A DNA stretch of 63,973 nt, filler included, from Craspedostauros australis (GCA_030167865.1; 14 parts of 14 records of this genome joined end to end with filler, not necessarily neighbours in it), one strand, 5' to 3'. Counted from the whole stretch's first letter, positions 1,235 to 63,720 are shown. Notes: generated from the letters alone by a model not told the origin. Translations and numbers: made by a program.

Positions 1235-2280
1235 CGATCAATTGGAAATACCGTAGCGGAAGACGGGGCCTTGCTTTGATGAAACCGCGGACGGAATTTA
1301 CGACAGCATAGACGATGACAGCGGATGCCGTCGGGTGGGCGATGAATTGCTCGACGCAGCAACGCAAAGCAACAGGTGAAGAAATGGAGGGAGCGAAGCT
1401 GCACCGTAGCGAATATGCACAGAGCCGACGTCGCGGCTGCATATGTGCAATGGAAAGTTGAAGAGGCCACAAGATGTGAATGATGCATCACACACCATCA
1501 TCGGAATATTGGCAGAGAATCAATGGCGAATGGACCTGCTTTGTTGGGACACAGCGAATGACCATAAAACTCGAACGATCGAAGACTATGCCTTGGACGC
1601 ATTCACTGCAACCTTTTCAGCGACAAGGATGGGATGATGATTGCCGATGATTGCCGGTGCAGTTCCCATCGCGATTCACCCAAATGGTGGACAATGACCG
1701 CTGTTTCAATCAGCGCAGCGTGTGTCAAGAAACGGTACATCCATGAGGGCATACGCCGGGCGTCGCTGACATTACATGACAGCCTGGCGCCGGCACAATA
1801 AAGTTGCGGAAGGCGACGTACATAGTGGATACTTGATTGCATAAACTGAAAGCAACAGAGAACAATAACCAGATCAAGAGTTGCGCAACTCATGAAAAGT
1901 CACAAGATCTTTCATCCCTCTCTGGTGCTTGAATCCTCTTCACAGTCCATATTTCGTGCGGACCGCTGCTCGTTGATCATACTCTTGTGCTTTTCCAAAG
2001 GCTTGAGGTGATGCCTGCGCACCGCCGATTCTCTGAAACGTCTGCAGTTTCTTCGGCGATAGTCCTCCATGACGGCCGTCTTCGATCTCAAAGTTATAGT
2101 TCTCATCGAACGCATCGACGGGGGCGCCCAAACACACACAGCATCAATGCCAGAAAAGGAAGCACAAATGCGCTGCACACCTGAAAGTCCATGATCTGCC
2201 AATGTCGAACGTTTCGTGAAATGGAAATGAACGAAGGCTCTGTCAAATAAGTTCATCCACTGTTCTATTTGGTCTTTGCC

Positions 2281-5200
2281 CTATGCATAATCCGACTTAT
2301 GCTGGCGCAACAGCATGTCGACCTTCTTGTTCGCGCCCCACTGTCCGTATAGATTGATGGACTCCTCCAAATGGATCTTCGCCTTCTCCTTGTTTCCTCT
2401 GCGAGCATAGAAAGCAGAGTATCTCTCATTCACAAGGGCCTGGTCGTGAATAAGCGACTGTCGCCGCGTCATTTGGATGGCCTCGTCGTATTGCTCGATT
2501 GCTTTCTTGTCTTGTTTCTTCAGAGAGTACTTTTCAGCATCCAACAGCGCAATGTACGGGATGCAATTCGGATTGCCCTTCTTGGCCCACCTCTTCAATA
2601 TCTTCAGGAATGTGCGAGCGTGCTTGGTGTAGTAGGATGGTTTGCATTTGTGTGCCATCCCGTAACAGCAGAGTGCACTATGGAACAGTGCAGGAGGCAG
2701 ATAGTAACTGGATGGTAGCGCCTTGACCCAATCCAGGCAAGATTTGATTGCAATTTGGGAACCAATTTCATGCTCGCCAAAGTAGGCTGCAAGATACAGC
2801 TGGAATATCCTGCGAGTCATGTCTTGAGCATCTGCTAGCGCATGGTTGGCATCATACGCTTCGTTTGTTTCGTTGTATGCATCCCCAATCAATTGGGTTG
2901 TGTGGTTGGAGGCACCTCGAAGGTTCAAGACAAGCTGCCATAGCATGAGGGTCAGCTGGTATTGGAGGTTCTGCTGGAAATCTCGCATGGTGTTGCTGTG
3001 AACCAGTGCATCTTCGTCGAGAGAGTCCAGCGGTTGCCCGGCGACGAGGCTGAAGACGAGAGAGCCATACAGAGACCAAGTACCAGTTTCCACGTCACCA
3101 GTGGACATACTTAGCCTTGAAGCCTCCAGCATGGGACTGATACTTTCTTCAAACGGATGATTCCAATGACGAATGCCGCATTGGTGATAGTGTATAGTCT
3201 TGCCATCAAAGCTGGGATCATCCGATATCTTGGTGATTCTCAGCGCTATCTTCCCACACTTTTGAGCCACATCGAAGCGCTCCAGTATGCAAACCTCGAG
3301 AATTCCGGCGAAGGCCAGAGCCGATGCCGAATACATCGTGATTCCTTGTTTCAAGCTCAGCCTCAATGCCTTCACAGTGATCAAAGGCACGAGATCGGGT
3401 GCGCTCAAGTAAGCGATCATTGTGAACTTGTCCAATGTCTTCATGACGGCTTGACGATGTTCGTCATTTGATAACGACAGCGTGTCTCTCAAGTCTTCTT
3501 CCAGCCGTCGAACTATGCTCTGGGTTGATATTATTCCTCGGAGAATGTAGATCATCCGACCCAGGGTGGTGGAAGGAAGATTGCAACCAAGCTGTGACAA
3601 CAGGTCAAGGCACATATCCACGGGCCCTTCCTCTTCAGTATTCTCTGTTTCCGAGAAAGAGATGTCGATCAGGACGTGATATGCACGGACCTTGCCCAGT
3701 ATGCCACAGTTCTGATTGATGACGGCCTTGCAGTATGATCGTGAGGCGGCGAAGCTGGTGATCACGAGATGGCTCTCCGCTGCCGATGAGTACAGCTCCA
3801 GGCTCTCCTCACTCAGCGTCTGCCAGTGATCATCTGGAAGGAGATCGATCGCCAAGGCGAAATATGAAGACGCCAGATGGAAGGCCGATGCACTGGCGGC
3901 CTGCTGCCCAGCCTTGTGGTTGAGCATGATGATCCTCATTCGACGATCCAACGCCTGACGGCTGGGCATGAGATCGGGTCTCGTGTCGAGAAGATTGGTG
4001 ATCATGAAGATCTTGTCGTTGAGGTCGTTCTCAGATAGCGCGTACAGCAGGATCTCTCCAACACGATACTTGAGCTCCGAGAGCTGGTCTTCTGTGGGTA
4101 TCATGGATAGTGCGGCTTCTTGGACCTTGTCATGGATAAAGGCGTATTGGACGGATTTGGCCCGTCTGACTCGCGTACTCTTGTTGCTGGTGGATGTCTC
4201 TTTGGAGCTGCCATCGCTAACTGTGGAGCTTTGGTGATCAAGCACTTGTACTTTCTTGAGCAATGCTTCTCTGTCGAATGTCTGGAGCATGGCGATGATC
4301 TCATCCTCCTTGACGATCTTGGTGACTTGGAATACCTCGCGGAAGAACTTGGAGTGACTGGAGTGGATGAAGAGGCCCGTGATGACTGCGCAGACGTGCG
4401 AAGTAGAGAACGTGGCTCCGAGGCAGGCCGCGATGGATAGTACCCAGTGCGTGGAGGCGGACTTTTGGAGCCTCATCTTCATGAGGTCCATGATGTTGTC
4501 ACCCGCAGCCGCAGATCTGTAAGTGATCTCGTTGACATCCCAGGCCCATGCTGCTGCGTGGCTGGCGTCATTCGTGACTCCTGATACTTCTGGGAGTGTC
4601 GCCGCTGCTGTTGTTGGCGGTGTCGGCGGTGTTGGTAGATGATTCTGGGTGATGAGACCGTCCTTGACGAGTGAGTCAAGGTACTGCTGGATGAAGAACA
4701 TGTTGCCAGCCGTCTTCCCGTGCACGATCTCTGCCAGAGGCATCAAGTGTGCGAGCGATGATGCAGCTTCGGAATGATCGGGATGATCGCCTTCGTCTCC
4801 TTCATGCGAAGATACACGGAAGAGGCGCTGGAGGTACACTGCTACCTCATCCACGCTCAGATCCTCGACTGAGAGCTTAATGATCCGAATGGACCGCTCT
4901 CTCTTCGATTCCTCCAACGATGCCAGAGTCGCCTTCAGAGTCTGGTTCTCATCCAACATGTTCGAACGGTACAGTCCGATGATGGTCAGCGATGTGCTTC
5001 TGCTGTCCAGCAGCCAGGACTGGATGAGACCCAGCGAGGCTCGATCAGCCCACTGAAGGTCGTCGATGGCCATGACTACTGGGCAGTAGCTGCAGAGGAT
5101 CTGCATGAACCTGCGCAACACGTAGGTGATTCGTTGTGTGTGGCTTTTGTAATTCATGGACAAGCCGCTACCCCACACACTGCTGCCGACAGAGGGGCAG

Positions 5201-21697: not shown

Positions 21698-23517
21698 GTT
21701 GCTGTGTGTGTTTGACCGAGTTGGGATGGAATATCTGTGCAAGACTGTGGCATGAATCAGGAGAGTATGTGTAATGTGCATTTCGTTTCATCGGGAACGG
21801 AGAGGTGTTGCGTAGCGACGTTCGCGTCGTAGTTTCAAGTTTCATGAAAAGAGATCGATCACCAACCAACACAAAATCAAATTGAAAGGCAGGAGAGAAA
21901 GCAGTTGGTGGTGTGAGATGTATTCGCACTCGAAGAGTCGGAGCATGTTGCTACGGGGGTGATTTCCAATGTCCAACGCAACGGCGTTCGTCATCCGCCG
22001 CCATGGCAAGCGAAAGGCTTTGATAGCGGATGCCATTTCGAGGATCGTCATCGCAGAGCTCGCTTGGAGGAAGCCCGCGACTCCCTTCGTCGCATCTTCA
22101 TGATGGGCCCTCAAGGATGCAGGGAGACCTGCAGCTCCTGTGCTTGTCATATCCGATATCCATGCAGATGGCACCCTCCATTCCATGCTCCTTCTTGGTG
22201 GAAAGCCATCTTCGTCCGAGCCATAACAGAGGCCATCACGACTTCGTTGCCTGTCCGATGCGGGTGCGCAGGTTGAAATGGTCATCGCTCCGGATGGATG
22301 TCCGTTGCTGACATCTGCCTCATCTTCCTGATCTTCCTTCCATCGCCATCGTCGAAGCCGTTCGCCGCAAACGCATCATCATCGTCAACACCGCCGCCAA
22401 CGCCATCGTCCTTACATCGTCGCTGTGTCTCAATCGCCGCGCATCGAAACCACCACCGCGAAAGCCACACACCACAACACGCCAGTACTCACCAAAACAC
22501 AACTCAACATCACGCAGCACAACACAACCCAAACGAACACGGACACAAGCAAACAACCACCCAACGACGAAGACGATGCAACAGAAACCGCAAATTCACC
22601 GACGACGCAAGGACGGAAATGGAATTCAGGTTGGTCGAATACAGTAGTAAGAGAGTAAGCGGTACTGCGATCGTCCAACAGCCCGCCGTGTCGCAGCGAC
22701 AAATCAAGTTTGAAGTCCAACTGGTCGACCATACACATGAAAGAAAAACGGCCATCCGACCTGTTGTCCACTTTTGTGCACGCATCAGAGACCTCACGCG
22801 CGCGCGCATGCTCAGTGTTCTTCTTTTGAACCGGATGAACGGTATTTTGACTTTGGGTTGTCAACAGTCACAACATCAACCACGAGCATTGTAACAAATC
22901 AGGACGAAACAACGGGAGAGAAAGGGAGAAGAGAGACAGAAATCAGCAATGCGACGACACCCCACCCTTGTCTTGTGCCGTCTCATCTTTTTGAGTTGAG
23001 GCAGTTGGTGTGACGGTGCTCCTTGTCACTTCAACCAACGAGCAAGCAAGTGCGCAGGAACAACAGAAGCAAAGACAGAATCGAAGGAAAAGGAGAGACG
23101 CAACGAAACAAAATCAAACCACAGCAAACAGAACAAGAACAACACAGGCAAGCTTGTACGATCACACGAACGGCATTCGCAAAGGTAGCCGGAAGAGTCG
23201 CAGCTTCTTTCTTCTGGTATTCCATACTCCACCATCCTGTGTCTTCCTCAGCCAGACGAGAGACGAGCACACACTACAACATCCTTGCAGCTTTGAATCC
23301 GGCATCCCCCGAGCAACAGCACTCTGGAGAGGAACGGACCTTGACTGAATCGGGCGTTCCTCGACACGCACTTGCGGCACATCCAGCCAAGGTCAACTCA
23401 CGCAAACTCATCACGACGGTTACACAAACGCAGTGAACGAGAAGACAGATCATCATCGGTGGCACCTGACGTGAAGAACCTTGGGCAGAGTGTACGCACG
23501 ATCATCGCTGCGCCAAG

Positions 23518-24017
23518 ATGGTCAAGGAAAATGATTACAAGAGTTCCAACTCGTTGCTCAAGACGGCAACCACCAGACGCTTCGGAAAGGGGCGCTTGGG
23601 ACGCGTGGCGATGCGGGCAAGGCCACCGCAGCCGCCGGTCAAGAGCGTTCAGGTGCAACAGGATGAATCCAAGATTTCCGACATGACAGATTCTGTGGAG
23701 GACGCCGTTCGCAAGACCACCGTGCGACAAGCATCAGGAACGGGATCGACGCTGTCGGCTCAGCGGACGGAGTTGTCCTCCTTCGCGCAGGCCATCAACG
23801 TCTCACCGCAGCCCCAGGCATACGTGATGCCGAAGGCCAAGATCCCCTCCAAAGCGATCAAGCCGCAGAAGAAGTCGATGCAGATTCACGAAGGCATCAG
23901 CCTCATCGCACCGTCTCCAATGACCATCGACCGCGTTCAGGTGCAGATGGGACAGGAACACGCGGCCCCCGAGTCACGGCGCTACAAACTGCAACATCAA
24001 CAGCAGGAGCAGCAGCA

Positions 24018-24060
<43 letters not shown>

Positions 24061-35406: not shown

Positions 35407-37696
35407 ATAGCAGGGAGCAACGGATCCGACTGAATAGGTGCAGAATAGTGATGAAGGCGGTTAGCGTGGCAGATGTGGTGGAAGCAAGGAGCCGGCGAGC
35501 AGTGGCGAGAAATCCAATGGAAGAAGGAAGCAAGTGGAGAGGAAGAGAGTACATCCAATGGCCAAGGCAGGGACCCGTGCCACAGAAAGACTGGGCGCTG
35601 TGGAAACAGGCTGTGACGCGCATAGCAAAGACAGCAAGGCACAGTGAGGAGTGGGAATTGGAACAGGTCAGCGTGGTACGGGCCGAGAACGGAAGAAAGC
35701 TGTGGACGCGCGAAGGGCCAAGAGAGTGGGCTGAATGGAGAAGCAAGGAAGGAATGGTTCCGGGCATGGAGCGATACCAACGCACGCAGCGAGCATCGAG
35801 CGAGCCACCGGAAGGCGGGCGAGCAGTGTTCGTGCGGGAAATACGCCAGGAGATACATGTGGTTGGAACCGGCGGCAGGGTCCAGCGGAGTCAGTCGAAA
35901 TCAGACAAACGATTAAGCAGGGCGGAAAAGCAGTGGCTGGAGGCAGTGGCTGCAGGAGAAGCAGTAGTGAGTACGGATGGATCGTTCAAAAACGGAAGAA
36001 GCACGGCGGCGTACTCACTCAACCGGCATGGGCGACGCAAGGGGTTGGTGACAGCAGCAGCAGAGGTGCAAGGCCGCAAACAAGTGCAGAGTGCGTACCG
36101 CGCAGAGCTAGGAGGGATACTCCAGGCGTTGCGGCGAGTCGAGAGCATCATACGGCGCGACCGGCAGTGTCACGACATAGCCGGCAAAACGGTGGTTGTG
36201 GCATGTGACAACAAAATGGCAGGCATCCACGCAGTCCAATACACACAAGACGTCGGTACGGCAGTCCAGCACTTCGACATTCTCCGGGAGATACGAGGTA
36301 TACAAAGTGGGCTGCCAGTGCGACTACGATACAAACACGTGTATGGCCACCAGTTGGAAAGAGACCGAGGAGTTGCACGGGACGAATTCGCCTTTTGGAA
36401 CGACGAGGTCGATAAGCAGGCCGGAGAAGCGCAGTCGGGCGCAACACAGTGCAGGGACAGTGAGGAGGGAGGCAACGAGTGGTCGGTGTGGCTGGACGGT
36501 GAGAAGGTGTGCACGAGGGTGACGGAAACGCTCCGCAGATATGTACAAGGCCAACGGACCACAGGATGGCAGCGCAAAGTAGGGCGCATCCGTAAGGAGC
36601 AGATGTCGGCAGTGGATGTTCAGGCGGCGAGGTTGGCCATGGGGCAGATCACGACAAGGCGCAGACAGTGGGTGGCAAAGCACGCATGCAGCTTCGGGCC
36701 AGTCGGCAGAAATATGCACAAGTGGAAATTCTGGGCGACCAATCTGTGCCCAATATGCGGGCAGTGTGAGGAAACGACGGATCACGTCATGCAGTGTCAG
36801 CACCCAACGGCCGTGGCGGTGCGACGGGCAGCTATGAAAGAATGGGAAACAGGATTGCTGGCAGGGCGAGGAAGCGGATTGATGGTGCGCGAGTTAGTCA
36901 GGCAGGTCGGCGCATGGTGTGACGGTCTGAGACTGGAAGGCGAGCAAGGGCCACAATTGAGCAAGGCAGTCGCAGAGCAGGCAAGTATAGGATGGAATAT
37001 GATGGTGAGAGGCAGATGGTCTAAGAAATGGGGACTAATGCAAGAGCAGATGATGGAGCTCCACGAGCAGCCAGGGACAGCGGCGAACTGGATTGCAAGA
37101 GCAATTGTGGGGCTGTGGGAAGTGCGGTGGAAGGCGTGGGAAGCGCGAAACAAGGTGTTGCACGAAAGCGAGTCAGGGATCGCGGTAGCGAAGCTGACGA
37201 GGGAAGCGGCGCGTGCAGTACGCAAAGAATGGAGGAAAGGCGTGGGCAACCTAACGGGGGATGACGCAAGACTGCTGACCCTCACAACGGAGGCAGCAGT
37301 GAGACGACAATCAGCAGCGAATCAGTTGACGTGGGTGAAGCACGTGCAGGCGGCACGGGCGGCCAGCGCTAGACGGAAACGGAAAAGGTCCGATTCGACA
37401 ACAACAGTGGCAGGAAGGGCAAGGCGAGTCAGATCGCGGCGTTAAGCGCGCAAGCAGACAAGCAGCCCCTCGGCCTTACAAAAAGAGAGTGAAGAGCATA
37501 GCGGAGGATTCCGGATGCCCAGTGCGGTATGTTTTATGGCCCGGTGGAGTGGCAACCAGCGGTAGACCCAGGAGTGAGGGACCTAGGTAGGTCGTTCGAG
37601 CGCAGTCGGCCCGTATGGGTTCGCTGTGAGCCGGCGACGTTAAAGCTTTCGAGGCAACCCTCTGATGAGGGAATAATCAGTGCGTTATTATTATTA
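35407..37696 (+). mobile_element. 3' half of an RNase H-bearing non-LTR retrotransposon (Ambal-like); ORF ends at 37445, then 3' UTR and (TTA)4 tail
   Basis: RNase H motifs TDGS, SAYRAELGG, CDN, HVYGHQ and N-x-x-VD-x-x-A. Zn finger CPICGQCEETTDHVMQC. TTATTATTATTA at 37685-37696. Confidence 0.88.
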
Positions 37697-38636
37697 CTCG
37701 ATTGCACAGCTCGATGTGGAGTTGCCTATTTAGAATCTGACCCTGAGGGAGGTGATCATGAACCTCAGATCGTCCAGGAACCCAGACTTCGCTCTCTTCA
37801 TGTTGATTGACACAGGCAGGATGGACCGCAACAGAACTGTCTTCGTATTCCATCCCAAACGGAGAATCGAAGCGCTGGAACTCATTTCGAAGCTCACCTT
37901 CTTTTGCAGCAAGAAGTTCGACCAAAATTGTCAAGGGTGGTTCACACCAGAGGCGTGGGCACAGAACCAGTATTATGAAGTAGACTGGGAGACAGGCCTC
38001 ATTCGGAGCAAGGAGGAAATGGGAGATGGGGCAGCTGGTTCAAGCTGGTGGCAACTTCCTCGACCTCGATGCAGAGGAAATGGTGGAGCTCACCCCAGCG
38101 GACGTGGGGTGGGAAGGATACGTGGATAAGGACGGGAACATGAAACCATTGTTCACCCTCGGCGTGTTCCTGACGTTTGACGGCGTCGATGACCAACAGG
38201 TCCAGGTGCTGCGGAAGAAGTCGGAGGACTTCGCGGGACAGATGCGTCACGCTCAGCTGTCTCCGGAAGACGCCAAGTCGGCCCTTACGTTGCGCTTTAT
38301 CAAGTCCATTGAGTACGTGATGGGGGTTTCTCAACTCACGCGCCATCAGTGGCGGCGCATCATGGCCCCAGCACTCTTGGCGGCCCTCCCAAAGATGGGA
38401 TGCGCAAGAACGTTCCCACGGGATCTGGTGTACGCTCCAGTCTCCCTCGGGGGATTGGGAGTCCCAAATCCGGTCCATCGGCAAGTGATCAAGCAACTGC
38501 AATTGCTTTTTGACGAGGTGCATGGCGACACGTCTACAGGGCGAATGCTCGTGTGCTCAATACAGGCGATCAAGGCAGAGCTGGGTATCGGAGGGTCTCT
38601 GTTCTCACAACCGTTCGACCAACTGCACCAGTGCGT
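37697..38636 (+). mobile_element. Decayed LINE remnant: ORF1-like fragment joined to a post-RT/thumb region
   Basis: LD...TLREVIMNL...WFTPEA...DWETG with a stop and frameshift. From about 38140, PLFTLGVF...FPRDLVYAP...GGLG is clearly homologous to 56620-56960. Confidence 0.65.
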
Positions 38637-38736
38637 NNNNNNNNNNNNNNNNNNNNNNNNNNNNNNNNNNNNNNNNNNNNTTAATTAATTAANNNNNNNN
38701 NNNNNNNNNNNNNNNNNNNNNNNNNNNNNNNNNNNN

Positions 38737-40908
38737 ATAGCAGGGAGCAACGGATCCGACTGAATAGGTGCAGAATAGTGATGAAGGCGGTTAGCGTGGC
38801 AGATGTGGTGGAAGCAAGGAGCCGGCGAGCAGTGGCGAGAAATCCAATGGAAGAAGGAAGCAAGTGGAGAGGAAGAGAGTACATCCAATGGCCAAGGCAG
38901 GGACCCGTGCCACAGAAAGACTGGGCGCTGTGGAAACAGGCTGTGACGCGCATAGCAAAGACAGCAAGGCACAGTGAGGAGTGGGAATTGGAACAGGTCA
39001 GCGTGGTACGGGCCGAGAACGGAAGAAAGCTGTGGACGCGCGAAGGGCCAAGAGAGTGGGCTGAATGGAGAAGCAAGGAAGGAATGGTTCCGGGCATGGA
39101 GCGATACCAACGCACGCAGCGAGCATCGAGCGAGCCACCGGAAGGCGGGCGAGCAGTGTTCGTGCGGGAAATACGCCAGGAGATACATGTGGTTGGAACC
39201 GGCGGCAGGGTCCAGCGGAGTCAGTCGAAATCAGACAAACGATTAAGCAGGGCGGAAAAGCAGTGGCTGGAGGCAGTGGCTGCAGGAGAAGCAGTAGTGA
39301 GTACGGATGGATCGTTCAAAAACGGAAGAAGCACGGCGGCGTACTCACTCAACCGGCATGGGCGACGCAAGGGGTTGGTGAAAGCAGCAGCAGAGGTGCA
39401 AGGTCGCAAACAAGTGCAGAGTGCGTACCGCGCAGAGTTAGGAGGGATACTCCAGGCGTTGCGACGAGTCGAGAGCATCATACGGCGTGACCGACAACGT
39501 CACAACATAGCCGGTAAAACGGTGATTGTGGCATGCGACAACAAAATGGCAGGCATCCACGCAGTCCAATACACACAAGATGTCGGTACGGCAGTCCAGC
39601 ACTTCGACGTTCTCCGGGAGATACGAGGTATACAACGCAGGCTGCCAGTGAGACTACGATACAAGCACGTGTATGGCCACCAGTTGGAAAGAGACCGAGG
39701 AGTTGCACGGGACGAATTCGCTTTTTGGAACGACGAAGTCGATAAGCAGGCAGGAGCAGCGCAGTCGGGCGCCATGAAGTGCAGGGACAATGATGGGGGA
39801 GGCGACGAGTGGTCGGTGTGGCTGAACGGTGAGAAGGTGTGTACGAGGCTGACGGAGACGCTCCGCAACTACGTACAAGGCCAACGGACCACAGGATGGC
39901 AGCGCAAAGTAGGGCGCATCCGTACGGAGCAGATGTCGGCAGTGGATATTACAGCGGCGAGGTTGGCCATGGGGCAAATCACGACAAGGCGCAGACAGTG
40001 GGTGGCAAAGCACGCATGCAGTTTCGGGCCAGTCGGCAGAAATATGCACAAGTGGAAATTCTGGGCGACCAATCTGTGCCCAATTTGCGGGCAGTGCGAG
40101 GAAACGACGGATCATGTCATGCAGTGTCAGCACCCAACGGCCGTGGCGGTGCGACGGGCAGCTATGAAAGAATGGGAAACAGGACTGTTGGCCGGGCGAG
40201 GAAGCGGGTTGATGGTGCGCGAGTTAGTCAGGCAGGTCGGAGCATGGTGTGACGGTTTGAGACTGGAAGGCGAGCAAGGGCCACAATTGAGCAAGGCAGT
40301 CGCAGAGCAGGCAAGTATAGGATGGAATATGATGGTGAGAGGCAGATGGTCTAAGAAATGGGGACTAATGCAAGAGCAGATGATGGAGCTCCACGAGCAG
40401 CCAGGGACAGCGGCGAACTGGATTGCAAGAGCAATTGTGGGGCTGTGGGAAGTGCGGTGGAAGGCGTGGGAAGCGCGAAACAAGGTGTTGCACGAAAGCG
40501 AGTCAGGGATCGCGGTAGCGAAGCTGACGAGGGAAGCGGCGCGTGCAGTACGCAAAGAATGGAGGAAAGGCGTGGGCAACCTAACGGGGGATGACGCAAG
40601 ACTGCTGACCCTCACAACGGAGGCAGCAGTGAGACGACAATCAGCAGCGAATCAGTTGACGTGGGTGAAGCACGTGCAGGCGGCACGGGCGGCCAGCGCT
40701 AGACGGAAACGGAAAAGGTCCGATTCGACAACAACAGTGGCAGGAAGGGCAAGGCGAGTCAGATCGCGGCGTTAAGCGCGCAAGCAGACAAGCAGCCCCT
40801 CGGCCTTACAAAAAGAGAGTGAAGAGCATAGCGGAGGATTCCGGATGCCCAGTGCGGTATGTTTTATGGCCCGGTGGAGTGGCAACCAGCGGTAGACCCA
40901 GGAGTGAG
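38737..40908 (+). mobile_element. Second variant of the Ambal-like LINE 3' half
   Basis: Offset by 3330 bp from 35407. Flanks are identical and substitutions are confined to about 39382-40257. Confidence 0.88.
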
Positions 40909-41008: not shown

Positions 41009-41653
41009 TCACCAACCCCTTGCGTCGCCCATGCCGGTTGAGTGAGTACGCCGCCGTGCTTCTTCCGTTTTTGAACGATCCATCCGTACTCACTACTGCT
41101 TCTCCTGCAGCCACTGCCTCCAGCCACTGCTTTTCCGCCCTGCTTAATCGTTTGTCTGATTTCGACTGACTCCGCTGGACCCTGCCGCCGGTTCCAACCA
41201 CATGTATCTCCTGGCGTATTTCCCGCACGAACACTGCTCGCCCGCCTTCCGGTGGCTCGCTCGATGCTCGCTGCGTGCGTTGGTATCGCTCCATGCCCGG
41301 AACCATTCCTTCCTTGCTTCTCCATTCAGCCCACTCTCTTGGCCCTTCGCGCGTCCACAGCTTTCTTCCGTTCTCGGCCCGTACCACGCTGACCTGTTCC
41401 AATTCCCACTCCTCACTGTGCCTTGCTGTCTTTGCTATGCGCGTCACAGCCTGTTTCCACAGCGCCCAGTCTTTCTGTGGCACGGGTCCCTGCCTTGGCC
41501 ATTGGATGTACTCTCTTCCTCTCCACTTGCTTCCTTCTTCCATTGGATTTCTCGCCACTGCTCGCCGGCTCCTTGCTTCCACCACATCTGCCACGCTAAC
41601 CGCCTTCATCACTATTCTGCACCTATTCAGTCGGATCCGTTGCTCCCTGCTAT
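41009..41653 (-). mobile_element. Third, partial copy of the Ambal-like LINE; apparent 5' junction near 41653
   Basis: Reverse complement of 35407-36051. Confidence 0.85.
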
Positions 41654-56273: not shown

Positions 56274-58157
56274 ATGTTCAATGCTATGCTCAAGTTGGGC
56301 CATGCATCCCAAGTGACGACGCCCAACGGAGAGGTCATTGAGATCCTTGGCTTGGCATTTGTTGACGACATGGATCTGGTCCGACTGGAGGTCACAGGCA
56401 GCGAAGGAACCAACACAGAGGCATTCAAGAGTATGGTCCACGACTGGAGCCGGCTGTTGAGAGTGACAGGCGGGGCGTTGGTTCCTGCTAGGTCAGTTTG
56501 GTGGGCCATCCAGCCCGAGTTCGTCAAAGGCGAGTGGGGCTGGAAGGACGTCGACACCCGCACCGCCATCCAAATCGAGGACGGAAACGGTGTCAGGTCA
56601 GAGATACCCTACAAGACGATGGACCAACCCCTGTTCACACTGGGAGTGTTCATTGACTTCGACGGCGACCAGACAGAGCAGATGCAGAGGATGAGAGCGA
56701 AGGCCAAGGATTTCGGAGGAAGAATGCAGGCAGCACAGATATCACCGGAAGACGCTAAGTCGGCGCTATCGCTGAGGTTCCTGAAGACGATCGAGTATGC
56801 CCTGCCGATGACGCAGCTTTCCAGACAACAATGGCAACTAGTCATGGCTCCGGCGCTGCTGGCGTCACTTCCAAAAATGGGAGTGTCCAGGAACTTCCCA
56901 CGGGCCCTTGTGTACGGCACAACCTCGCTTGGCGGGTTGGGAATCATTAACCCGGCCAACGCCTAGCTGATTTCACAAATACAGCTTGCGTTTGATGAGG
57001 TGCATCAAGGAACCCAGACAGGAAAGATGATCGAATGCTCTATTCTGGCACTCAAGGAAGAGCTGGGAACGGGCAGATCTATTTTCCAGTACCCCTTCGA
57101 TAGTGTGGGCCACTGTGCCACACAGTGCTGGGTGACGGGGCTATGGCAACAACTCCAAGACACCAGCATCCAGATTTATGAGACGACAACGACAGCGAAG
57201 GTCCAATGGGAAGGAGAGAGCTTCCTCACGGATATCTGACTGGAACAAAGCATCAAAGGAGCACAGCTCCGTCACCTGAACATGGTGCGCCAGAATTTGG
57301 GAGTGCTACGCTTGTCTGACATTGTATCGGCCAATGGCACAAGGATACTCGGCGAGGCTCACGACGGCACCATGGCGTCTTGCATACCCAAGCGCTGGGC
57401 CAACCAGCCGGAGCGACTACCAAGCGGATGGTGGCGAGAATGGCAACACTGGTGCAAGTCCATGTGTTTTCGAGGCCTTCTCCTGCACGAGCCGCTCGGT
57501 AGGTGGTACCGCGACGATGGGTCCTGGCGGTGATGGAAGGATACCTACGGCCACAATATATTCGACACGGGGGCACAGCCCCCACAGCGATATTCGCTTC
57601 GTCGAAACAGCAGAACCCGCAGGCAGCTCTACTCTCGGCGAGGCACAGCAGACAGTCTCCCAACAGGAGCCAAACGTGTCTTGGTGACTCTCACGGAAAC
57701 CGGCATGATGTGGGACGGCTTCGTCGGATTGGCACAGCCGATCGATGAGCGCGAAGAACCCTACGACCCAGTGGAGAATCTGCAAGGCGAACTGAGTCTC
57801 GAGGAGGCCGAGTGCGCTGCACGGAGATCCCAGCTGCTCGTGGTGAGTGACGGATCATTCAAAGATTTCAGAGGGACCGCGGCTTCTATTCTGTACGACG
57901 AGGCGACGACGGCAAGTATGACATGCCAGACGTTCGTCCCGGGCCCGTCCGAAGTGCAAAGTGCTTACAGAAGCGAACTTGCGGGAATCTGGGCGTCGCT
58001 TACCGTGATAGCCAGGATGCGAGGTCTGGACGCCTCGTGTGCGATTACCATTGCACTTGACGGCAAGCAGGCAATGTTGCAGGCCCAAGAGGATGGACTA
58101 CGCCCAGGCCAACGCGACTGGGATGTCCTGGCTGAGATTCGAGAGCTGCGGCACAGG
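56274..58157 (+). mobile_element. Decayed Ambal-like LINE fragment: RT C-terminal part, linker and RNase H start
   Basis: AFVDD, GGALVP-x-x-S-x-W, TLGV, GGLG, then SDGSFK...QSAYRSELAG. Stops at 56964 and 57237 plus a frameshift. Confidence 0.85.
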
Positions 58158-63310: not shown

Positions 63311-63720
63311 TCAGGTTCCGGCTTTTATAAACCCTAACCTAAAAAATAACGCCCTTGACTTTCAGGGGTTCAGGTTTCTGTAAACCACAACCCTAACCCT
63401 AACTAACCCTAATGATGAACTTGTCGATCGTTGTCATAGTGTTCACACGAGCAACCAATGAAGCCCTAATGTACGAGGAAATAACACGGTGACGTACGAC
63501 GGCCAGACCGAAGTTTGGGTCGATTGACGGACGACGTGCAGACGTTTGTATGGGCACACAATCCACACGGTCGACGTACAGAAGTTAATGTCTGGGAAAT
63601 GATCCGCAACTCCCAAACAACACGAGATACTACGAGCCACGCGATACACCGTGTTAAACATGTACACCACGCTATACCATGATGATCATGTTTACACGCA
63701 CATCCACTTGTACACACACA
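63311..63720 (-). repeat. Telomere-like unit, degenerate (CCCTAA) remnant and subtelomeric repeat
   Basis: CCCTAACCCTAACTAACCCTAA at 63391-63412. The flanks are homologous to 34147-34230 and 34890-35215. Confidence 0.82.

Follow-up and report, generated by a model that had tools for sequence, protein, structure and literature searches.

Can two retrotransposon tails that differ in sequence carry one and the same RNA structure, and what would such a structure do? The question is raised by a stretch of DNA from Craspedostauros australis (GCA_030167865.1), 63,973 nucleotides (nt) long and analysed as a whole (the window), in which two long interspersed nuclear elements (LINEs), termed here A and B, end in 3' untranslated regions (UTRs) of a common layout. 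The original prediction, made from the bare DNA, proposed a conserved, covarying multi-hairpin RNA motif at the 3' ends of two divergent LINE families, serving either as an element recognised by reverse transcriptase (RT) or as an unclassified ribozyme. The structural part of this proposal is borne out by the analysis described here, and a third family retains the layout with new compensatory changes. Comparative evidence indicates that the module is probably the cis-acting 3' tail of a LINE clade with an apurinic/apyrimidinic endonuclease (APE-type) and an RNase H-like domain, of the "stringent" type recognised by its own reverse transcriptase. All positions are those of the window, on the plus strand unless stated otherwise.

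Element A (35409-37696) consists of the 3' part of a LINE second open reading frame (ORF2) and its UTR, the 5' side being cut by an assembly linker. Its coding part (35409-37445) encodes the C-terminal 678 amino acids (aa), for which phmmer searches and alignments define an RNase H-like region and a CxxC..H..C zinc knuckle. The stop codon (37443-37445) is followed by a UTR of 251 nt (37446-37696) ending in a (TTA)4 tail. Searches with phmmer/HMMER against 1.84 billion representative proteins returned 2879 relatives at E <= 1e-3, the best of them 30% identical, and full-length relatives measure 1850-1940 aa. Two family alignments were built, with 44 and 10 sequences, and the smaller served for locus searches because the larger was too diverse. 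The carboxylates and histidine of the RNase H-like site and the zinc knuckle are invariant in both; the invariant positions of the 10-sequence alignment are D190, E233, D267, H314, N331, D335, C447, C450, H459, and C463.

Among relatives scanned, RVT_1 scored above the cut-off in two of five full-length proteins and zf-RVT was found in three of four, as was a weak N-terminal Exo_endo_phos match (E 0.003-0.04, below the cut-off). The sole Pfam match on element A itself was zf-RVT, also below the cut-off (E 0.0036). A profile search of the PDB with the 10-sequence alignment returned nothing at E <= 1, and a word index yielded no protein relatives of near length. In a protein-language-model atlas, element A adjoins both RNase_H clusters (0.93-0.95) and unnamed clusters in which Bacillariophyta predominate among the known members, and the nearest protein look-alikes of the clade likewise come mostly from diatoms. 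Assignment to the LINEs, as APE-type retrotransposons lacking long terminal repeats (non-LTR), draws on the target-site duplication and 5' truncation of element B, on the 3' repeat tail, and on RVT_1 in the relatives. The endonuclease type is taken from these relatives, since the copies in the window lack the N-terminal half.

Element B (31043-31419), a 5'-truncated insertion of 377 bp, has a 16-nt target-site duplication, TGGTACCAATGCGATA, on either side (31027-31042 and 31420-31435). Target-primed reverse transcription with 5' truncation characteristically leaves duplication-flanked fragments of this kind. Its frame at 31045-31311 matches the 44-sequence ORF2 profile at E 4.6e-8 over positions 481-570 of 574, the extreme C-terminus, and the 10-sequence profile at E 3.7e-7, with the other five frames at E >= 0.54. 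BLASTP of this frame against element A detected no similarity, and a profile-guided alignment gives 16 of 72 residues identical. The description as two divergent LINE families is therefore right, as B matches the ORF2 profiles yet shares so few residues with A. Judged from its sequence, element B is a true retrotransposed LINE copy of the same ORF2 superfamily and more than a look-alike. Classification as a short interspersed nuclear element (SINE) was considered and rejected: ARAGORN finds no tRNA-like head, and the frame matches the ORF2 C-terminus.

What do the two tails have in common? The module spans about 100 nt and follows a fixed order. Helix P1 encloses a variable helix P2, the two together making one long irregular hairpin; a single-stranded G(U/G)UAAA linker, helix P3, the 5-bp helix P4, UAAUC, a short conserved spacer, and a U/A-rich repeat tail come after it. 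In element A, P1 (37591-37638) pairs GTCGTT (37591-37596) with GGCGAC (37633-37638) according to sequence and fold. P2 (37601-37628) folds into 6 bp, a C/C mismatch, 5 bp, and a GTAT loop. The single-stranded linker GTTAAA (37639-37644) recurs as GGTAAA in B and as GTTAAA in the third tail. P3 (GCTT-TCG-AGGC, 37645-37655) has one pair changed on both sides in that third tail, and P4 (CCCTC-TGAT-GAGGG, 37658-37671) folds better than shuffled sequence. Sequence and alignments define the closing stretch (37674-37696), made of TAATCA, a 5-nt spacer, and the tail TTATTATTATTA (37685-37696).

The corresponding parts of element B are P1 (31332-31371), pairing CTCGCT (31332-31337) with GGCGAG (31366-31371) by sequence and fold; P2 inside it (CTGGTCC-TACG-GGGCCGG, 31342-31362), given by fold and covariance model; and the linker GGTAAA (31372-31377). 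P3 (31378-31387) and P4 (ACATC-TAT-GATGT, 31388-31400) are supported by sequence and covariance model, and are followed by TAATCA (31400-31405) and the tail TTATTA (31414-31419). The distance from stop codon to P1 is 145 nt in A (37446-37590), 17 nt in B (31315-31331), and about 705 nt in the third tail. By eye, the TGAT loop region of P4 is complementary to the conserved TAATCA block, over 5 bp in A (37662-37680), 4 bp in B (31393-31405), and 3 bp in the third tail. This alternative pairing would exclude P4.

Every string and coordinate named in the original prediction is found in its place in A and B, including CGA after the 5' strand of P1, both linkers, the P4 hairpins, and TAATCA followed by TTA repeats. 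The compensatory change claimed for the outer stem, GTCGTT/GGCGAC against CTCGCT/GGCGAG, is likewise confirmed in place. Three of its details need adjustment. The inner hairpins, proposed as GGCCC-GTAT-GGGTT and CTGGTCC-TACG-GGGCCGG, are present, but that of A is longer than claimed, with 6 + 5 bp around the C/C mismatch. The GCYT..AGGC hairpin exists in both tails, in B with at most 3 bp and a 4-nt loop. The block GAGTGGCAAC, claimed upstream of both tails, does match exactly in A (37547-37556) and in B (31313-31322, overlapping the stop codon at 31312-31314), but its inclusion in a family motif is not supported by the third family, where it occurs at chance level. Exact matches in the window are limited to 31313, 37547, and 40877, the last within a second copy of A that a linker cuts short.

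Is the resemblance structural, or one of sequence alone? In blastn, 31333-31420 of the contig carrying B aligns with 37596-37694 of A (66.7% over 99 nt, E 2.7e-5), and nothing aligns between the coding DNA of the two elements. Only A and the originally predicted structure (26 pairs) went into a first covariance model, which was run unfiltered over both strands of the whole window. It finds B at 31.5 bits (E 6.5e-6), with the next match at E 3.6; when the structure is left out, B scores 21.9 bits against A. When A and B are aligned by Infernal, 98% of the cells are paired, with four pairs double-changed, seven single-changed, and one cell unpaired, and this lone cell also pairs under the originally predicted register for P2 of B. 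Stems and unpaired columns change at similar rates between the tails (15 of 46 positions and 13 of 48), yet canonical pairing is preserved in 22 of 23 pairs. Under a naive substitution null, which ignores the fitting of the alignment to structure, this many pairs or more survive in 1 of 200,000 trials. Shuffle controls reach the observed values in 30 of 500 cases, where two sequences set a floor of about 1 in 16. The structure-fitted alignment has a structure conservation index (SCI) of 0.86 with z -7.2, reached by 0 of 300 shuffles. Folding tests on the variable segments bounded by conserved blocks, which need no alignment, point the same way for two helices: P4 beats shuffles at p 0.0002-0.002 in A and 0.005 in B, and P2 at p 0.02-0.05 in A and 0.025-0.09 in B.

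The third tail comes from a 2472-nt contig, L007, found by protein alone in a scan of a prokaryote genome collection with the 10-sequence profile. It is filed under a Bacteroidota metagenome-assembled genome, and we infer that it is a eukaryotic passenger contig in that bin. Its frame at 3-1523 encodes a LINE ORF2 relative, 29% identical to A (E 6e-49), which matches the ORF2 profile at E 1.6e-175 and runs to the profile end. The model of A and B combined has a single match in this contig, at 2229-2338 on the ORF strand (32.4 bits, E 5e-7). Models of A alone give 28.1 bits with structure and 8.4 bits from sequence only. The tail reads GTCGTT ... GGCGAG, GTTAAA, GCCG-CAT-TGGC, TAGTT-TGAT-AACTA, TAATCT, and then TTATTTATTTAA. 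In place of the P2 of A and B, it has an entirely different hairpin of 7 bp (2243-2249 / 2258-2264), lengthened by four further pairs. Unconstrained folding to minimum free energy (MFE) recovers P1/P2, P3, and P4, and the segments of P2 (p 0.024) and P4 (p 0.0003) outperform shuffles. A stop-to-stop frame of 167 codons (1805-2308, plus strand) lies between ORF2 and the module and runs into the latter.

Across the three tails, 96.9% of alignment cells are paired and 7 of 26 pairs are changed on both sides: one each in P1, P2, and P3, and four in P4. Thus four of the five P4 pairs are double-changed with every cell paired. None of 500 shuffles reaches any of five measures, and slid controls, in which partners are moved by 1-3 columns, give 0-2 double-changed pairs and 28-59% pairing. 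The predicted covariation at the 3' ends of divergent LINE families is upheld by these figures, and retention of the motif in a further family by the layout of L007. In all three elements, the module lies 3' of ORF2 on the same strand. It abuts the TTA-repeat tail at the element end in A and B, the end of B being fixed by its target-site duplication; in L007 it stands before TTATTTATTTAA, at a putative element end. A recognition tail belongs at the extreme 3' end before short tandem repeats, which is where the module lies in A and B. Such a tail also stays conserved among related families while the rest diverges, as is seen in these three families, where the structure term adds 10-20 bits.

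Could common descent produce this picture without any structural function? The tails may be alike through shared ancestry, or through exchange by template switching between families, with the hairpins incidental. Long identical blocks common to the tails, such as GGCGA.G.TAAAGC, fit this account, and a few related sequences can beat shuffle controls without any structure. Two null results speak for it as well: plain MAFFT alignment of the A and B tails yields no consensus fold (SCI 0.20, z +0.37, at an identity of 0.59 against 0.61 in the fitted alignment), and whole-UTR MFE values are ordinary (z -0.49 and -1.23). Both count against a structured recognition tail, and further observations join them. 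The sample is as small as three tails, from at least two assemblies, with ORF2 identities of 22-29%. Pair counts lean towards structure because the alignments were fitted to structure by Infernal. P3 alone folds no better than shuffles (p 0.11-0.23). In L007, the outermost P1 pair is G/G, CGA is absent after P1, and GAGTGGCAAC occurs at chance level (19 matches at three mismatches, 19.4 expected). Moreover, some 705 nt separate its module from the stop codon, and no target-site duplication marks where the element ends. A search of Joint Genome Institute (JGI) metagenome contigs with the 23-nt conserved core recovered only six unrelated loci, five nearly identical and one other.

Despite these points, descent or exchange as the sole explanation appears unlikely. 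Differences concentrate in the stems and yet preserve pairing, at the counts given above against 0-2 double changes in slid controls. The P2 sequence is unrelated in each family and still forms a hairpin every time (p 0.02-0.09 each). Relative to sequence alone, the structure term raises the score of B by about 10 bits and that of L007 by about 20 bits, and the neighbouring coding DNA has diverged past alignment.

The six metagenome loci lack the hairpins and the tail, with a best model score of 16.4 bits (E 0.13). No further module match was found in the window, in the genome to which L007 is assigned, or in these six decoy loci, nor at E <= 0.01 in 150 related prokaryote genomes. In viral contigs, the 23-nt core pattern and a looser pattern each gave 0 matches, and the protein search with the 10-sequence alignment gave 39 pattern matches, none of which was confirmed.

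Does the module belong to a known RNA class? At gathering threshold, Rfam 15, which we take to contain a model of UnaL2, has 0 matches in the whole window, LINE 3' elements (UnaL2, R2) included. At E <= 10, the three tails match only SNORD127 (19.1 against 45 bits) and SNORD46 (13.4 against 40 bits), with nothing for B. A C/D box snoRNA was rejected as a candidate, as both models score far below threshold and the terminal stem of one alignment uses DNA flanking the element tail. A full-text literature search, supplements excluded, turned up no account of LINE 3' elements from diatoms and their kin. The earlier statement that the motif cannot be matched to a known class therefore stands for sequence and structure models, since no Rfam family matches. 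The principle of a LINE 3' recognition tail is nonetheless already known.

The second half of the original prediction, a self-cleaving ribozyme, finds no support. An unclassified ribozyme could define the 3' end of the LINE RNA, and a multi-helix RNA with invariant unpaired nucleotides would be compatible with this idea. In its favour, too, is CTGATGA in P4 of A, which presumably resembles the hammerhead core. However, this string is not conserved in B, and no Rfam 15 ribozyme family matches A, B, or L007 at E <= 10. Known small ribozymes have helices closed around a junction or pseudoknot, whereas the helices here are arranged in series. We regard a ribozyme as the least probable of the explanations considered. 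Also very improbable is a reading in which the module is more than a passive handle, namely a new 3'-end-defining RNA for LINEs without poly(A), either self-cleaving or switching between P4 and the TGAT/TAATCA pairing. If true, this activity would free the repeat tail, or make it accessible, so that priming can occur.

Recognition by the reverse transcriptase, the reading we prefer, implies a simple sequence of events. The ORF2 protein of the element would bind the module on its own RNA, with the helices supplying shape and the invariant unpaired blocks offering base-specific contacts. Binding would then set the U/A-rich repeat tail at the nicked target DNA, and target-primed reverse transcription would begin within that tail. 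This reading explains why B, reduced by 5' truncation to 377 bp, still has the whole module along with a target-site duplication. A different role for the structured RNA, such as 3'-end formation, RNA stability, or a binding site for a host factor or ORF1, also deserves consideration, as structure with conserved unpaired blocks would suit any sequence-specific RNA-binding partner. Yet the module immediately precedes the repeat tail, the place at which reverse transcription has to start, and it is present in the heavily truncated B, both as predicted by recognition of the tail, and no data favour another partner. An alternative function of this kind is, in our judgement, doubtful.

The genomic setting of the elements is constrained by the assembly. 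The window is a chain of small contigs joined by linkers, with 13 linker places across 7865-62787. Each linker is a pair of 44-N runs spaced 12 nt apart, the 12 nt being TTAATTAATTAA wherever read. The unit N44-TTAATTAATTAA-N44 is a six-frame-stop linker, and features on either side of it are not genomic neighbours. Elements A and B lie on different contigs; hence, their spacing in the window is uninformative about the genome. The contig of B starts with a tandem satellite (27631-28272; period 211 nt, sub-periods 90 and 120 nt) and ends in about 13 telomere-type TTAGGG copies (35230-35306), which places B about 3.8 kb from a chromosome end. Just 3' of B, two long open frames of 335 and 436 codons occupy the opposite strand (31392-34060, minus), without a Pfam match at E <= 0.01. 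Elsewhere in the window, a low-complexity open frame of 1380 codons (23470-27612, plus strand) with (CAG)21 at 24001-24065 runs into a linker, and a short run of AACCCT lies near the window end (63389-63412).

The window contains further LINE sequences. A second copy of element A, 97.5% identical over 2170 nt by pairwise alignment (38739-40908, plus strand), yields no second motif because it is interrupted by an assembly linker 12 nt short of the point where P1 would start. The tail of A is immediately followed by a similarly oriented, 5'-truncated RT fragment from a different LINE (37697-38636). By tblastn, residues ~760-1180 of the relatives map to 38011-38637, and its DNA is 67.6% identical to 56626-57067. 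The head-to-tail order of A and this fragment suggests insertion beside or into older copies. Two other fragments of the same clade lack a 3' end: one at 41009-41651 (minus strand), which begins at the edge of a contig and matches 35409-36051 with 100% identity, and one of a different family at 56274-58157 (plus strand).

How does the module compare with established systems? Most of what is understood about LINE recognition tails comes from animals (L2, R2), together with a few plants. Excerpts of PMC4176376 state that in stringent-type LINEs the ORF2 protein binds a stem-loop in the 3' tail and that retrotransposition needs this binding, and an excerpt of PMC3472496 reports common 3' ends for many LINE/SINE pairs. 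The closest likeness is found in stringent LINEs of the L2 clade (eel UnaL2, zebrafish ZfL2-1 and ZfL2-2), where a conserved hairpin with an internal loop at the 3' end, before short tandem repeats, is recognised by the cognate ORF2 and required for retrotransposition, according to portions of PMC4176376 and PMC1636434. Compared with the single L2 stem-loop, the present module is larger, with three or four helices and invariant linkers. The ORF2 considered here also differs in its RNase H-like domain and C-terminal zinc knuckle, and the tail unit is TTA or TTTA. In R2 elements the 3' UTR is similarly structured, and their protein binds it to initiate target-primed reverse transcription, as stated in an excerpt of PMC11194090. 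They differ in their restriction-like endonuclease, specific ribosomal DNA (rDNA) target, and longer 3' UTR of unrelated sequence. In a monocot L1 lineage, which belongs to another host group and clade, a conserved 3'-end structure is common to L1 and SINEs; no partner SINE was found here, and B carries an ORF2 C-terminus and no tRNA-like head. The Drosophila I factor, another LINE with RNase H, has a short trinucleotide repeat of A/T at its end where other LINEs may have poly(A). Its repeat unit differs in composition, and we know of no structured module common to it and the LINEs described here.

The module is thus not a new principle. With more tails in hand, it would be a fair candidate for a new RNA family, and as such for a new Rfam family. 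Moreover, a covarying module of about 100 nt would be a marker by which this LINE clade could be annotated and non-autonomous partners recognised. Together with ORF2, it would offer a concrete RNA-protein pair for understanding how an ORF2 with an RNase H domain and a zinc knuckle selects the RNA it copies.

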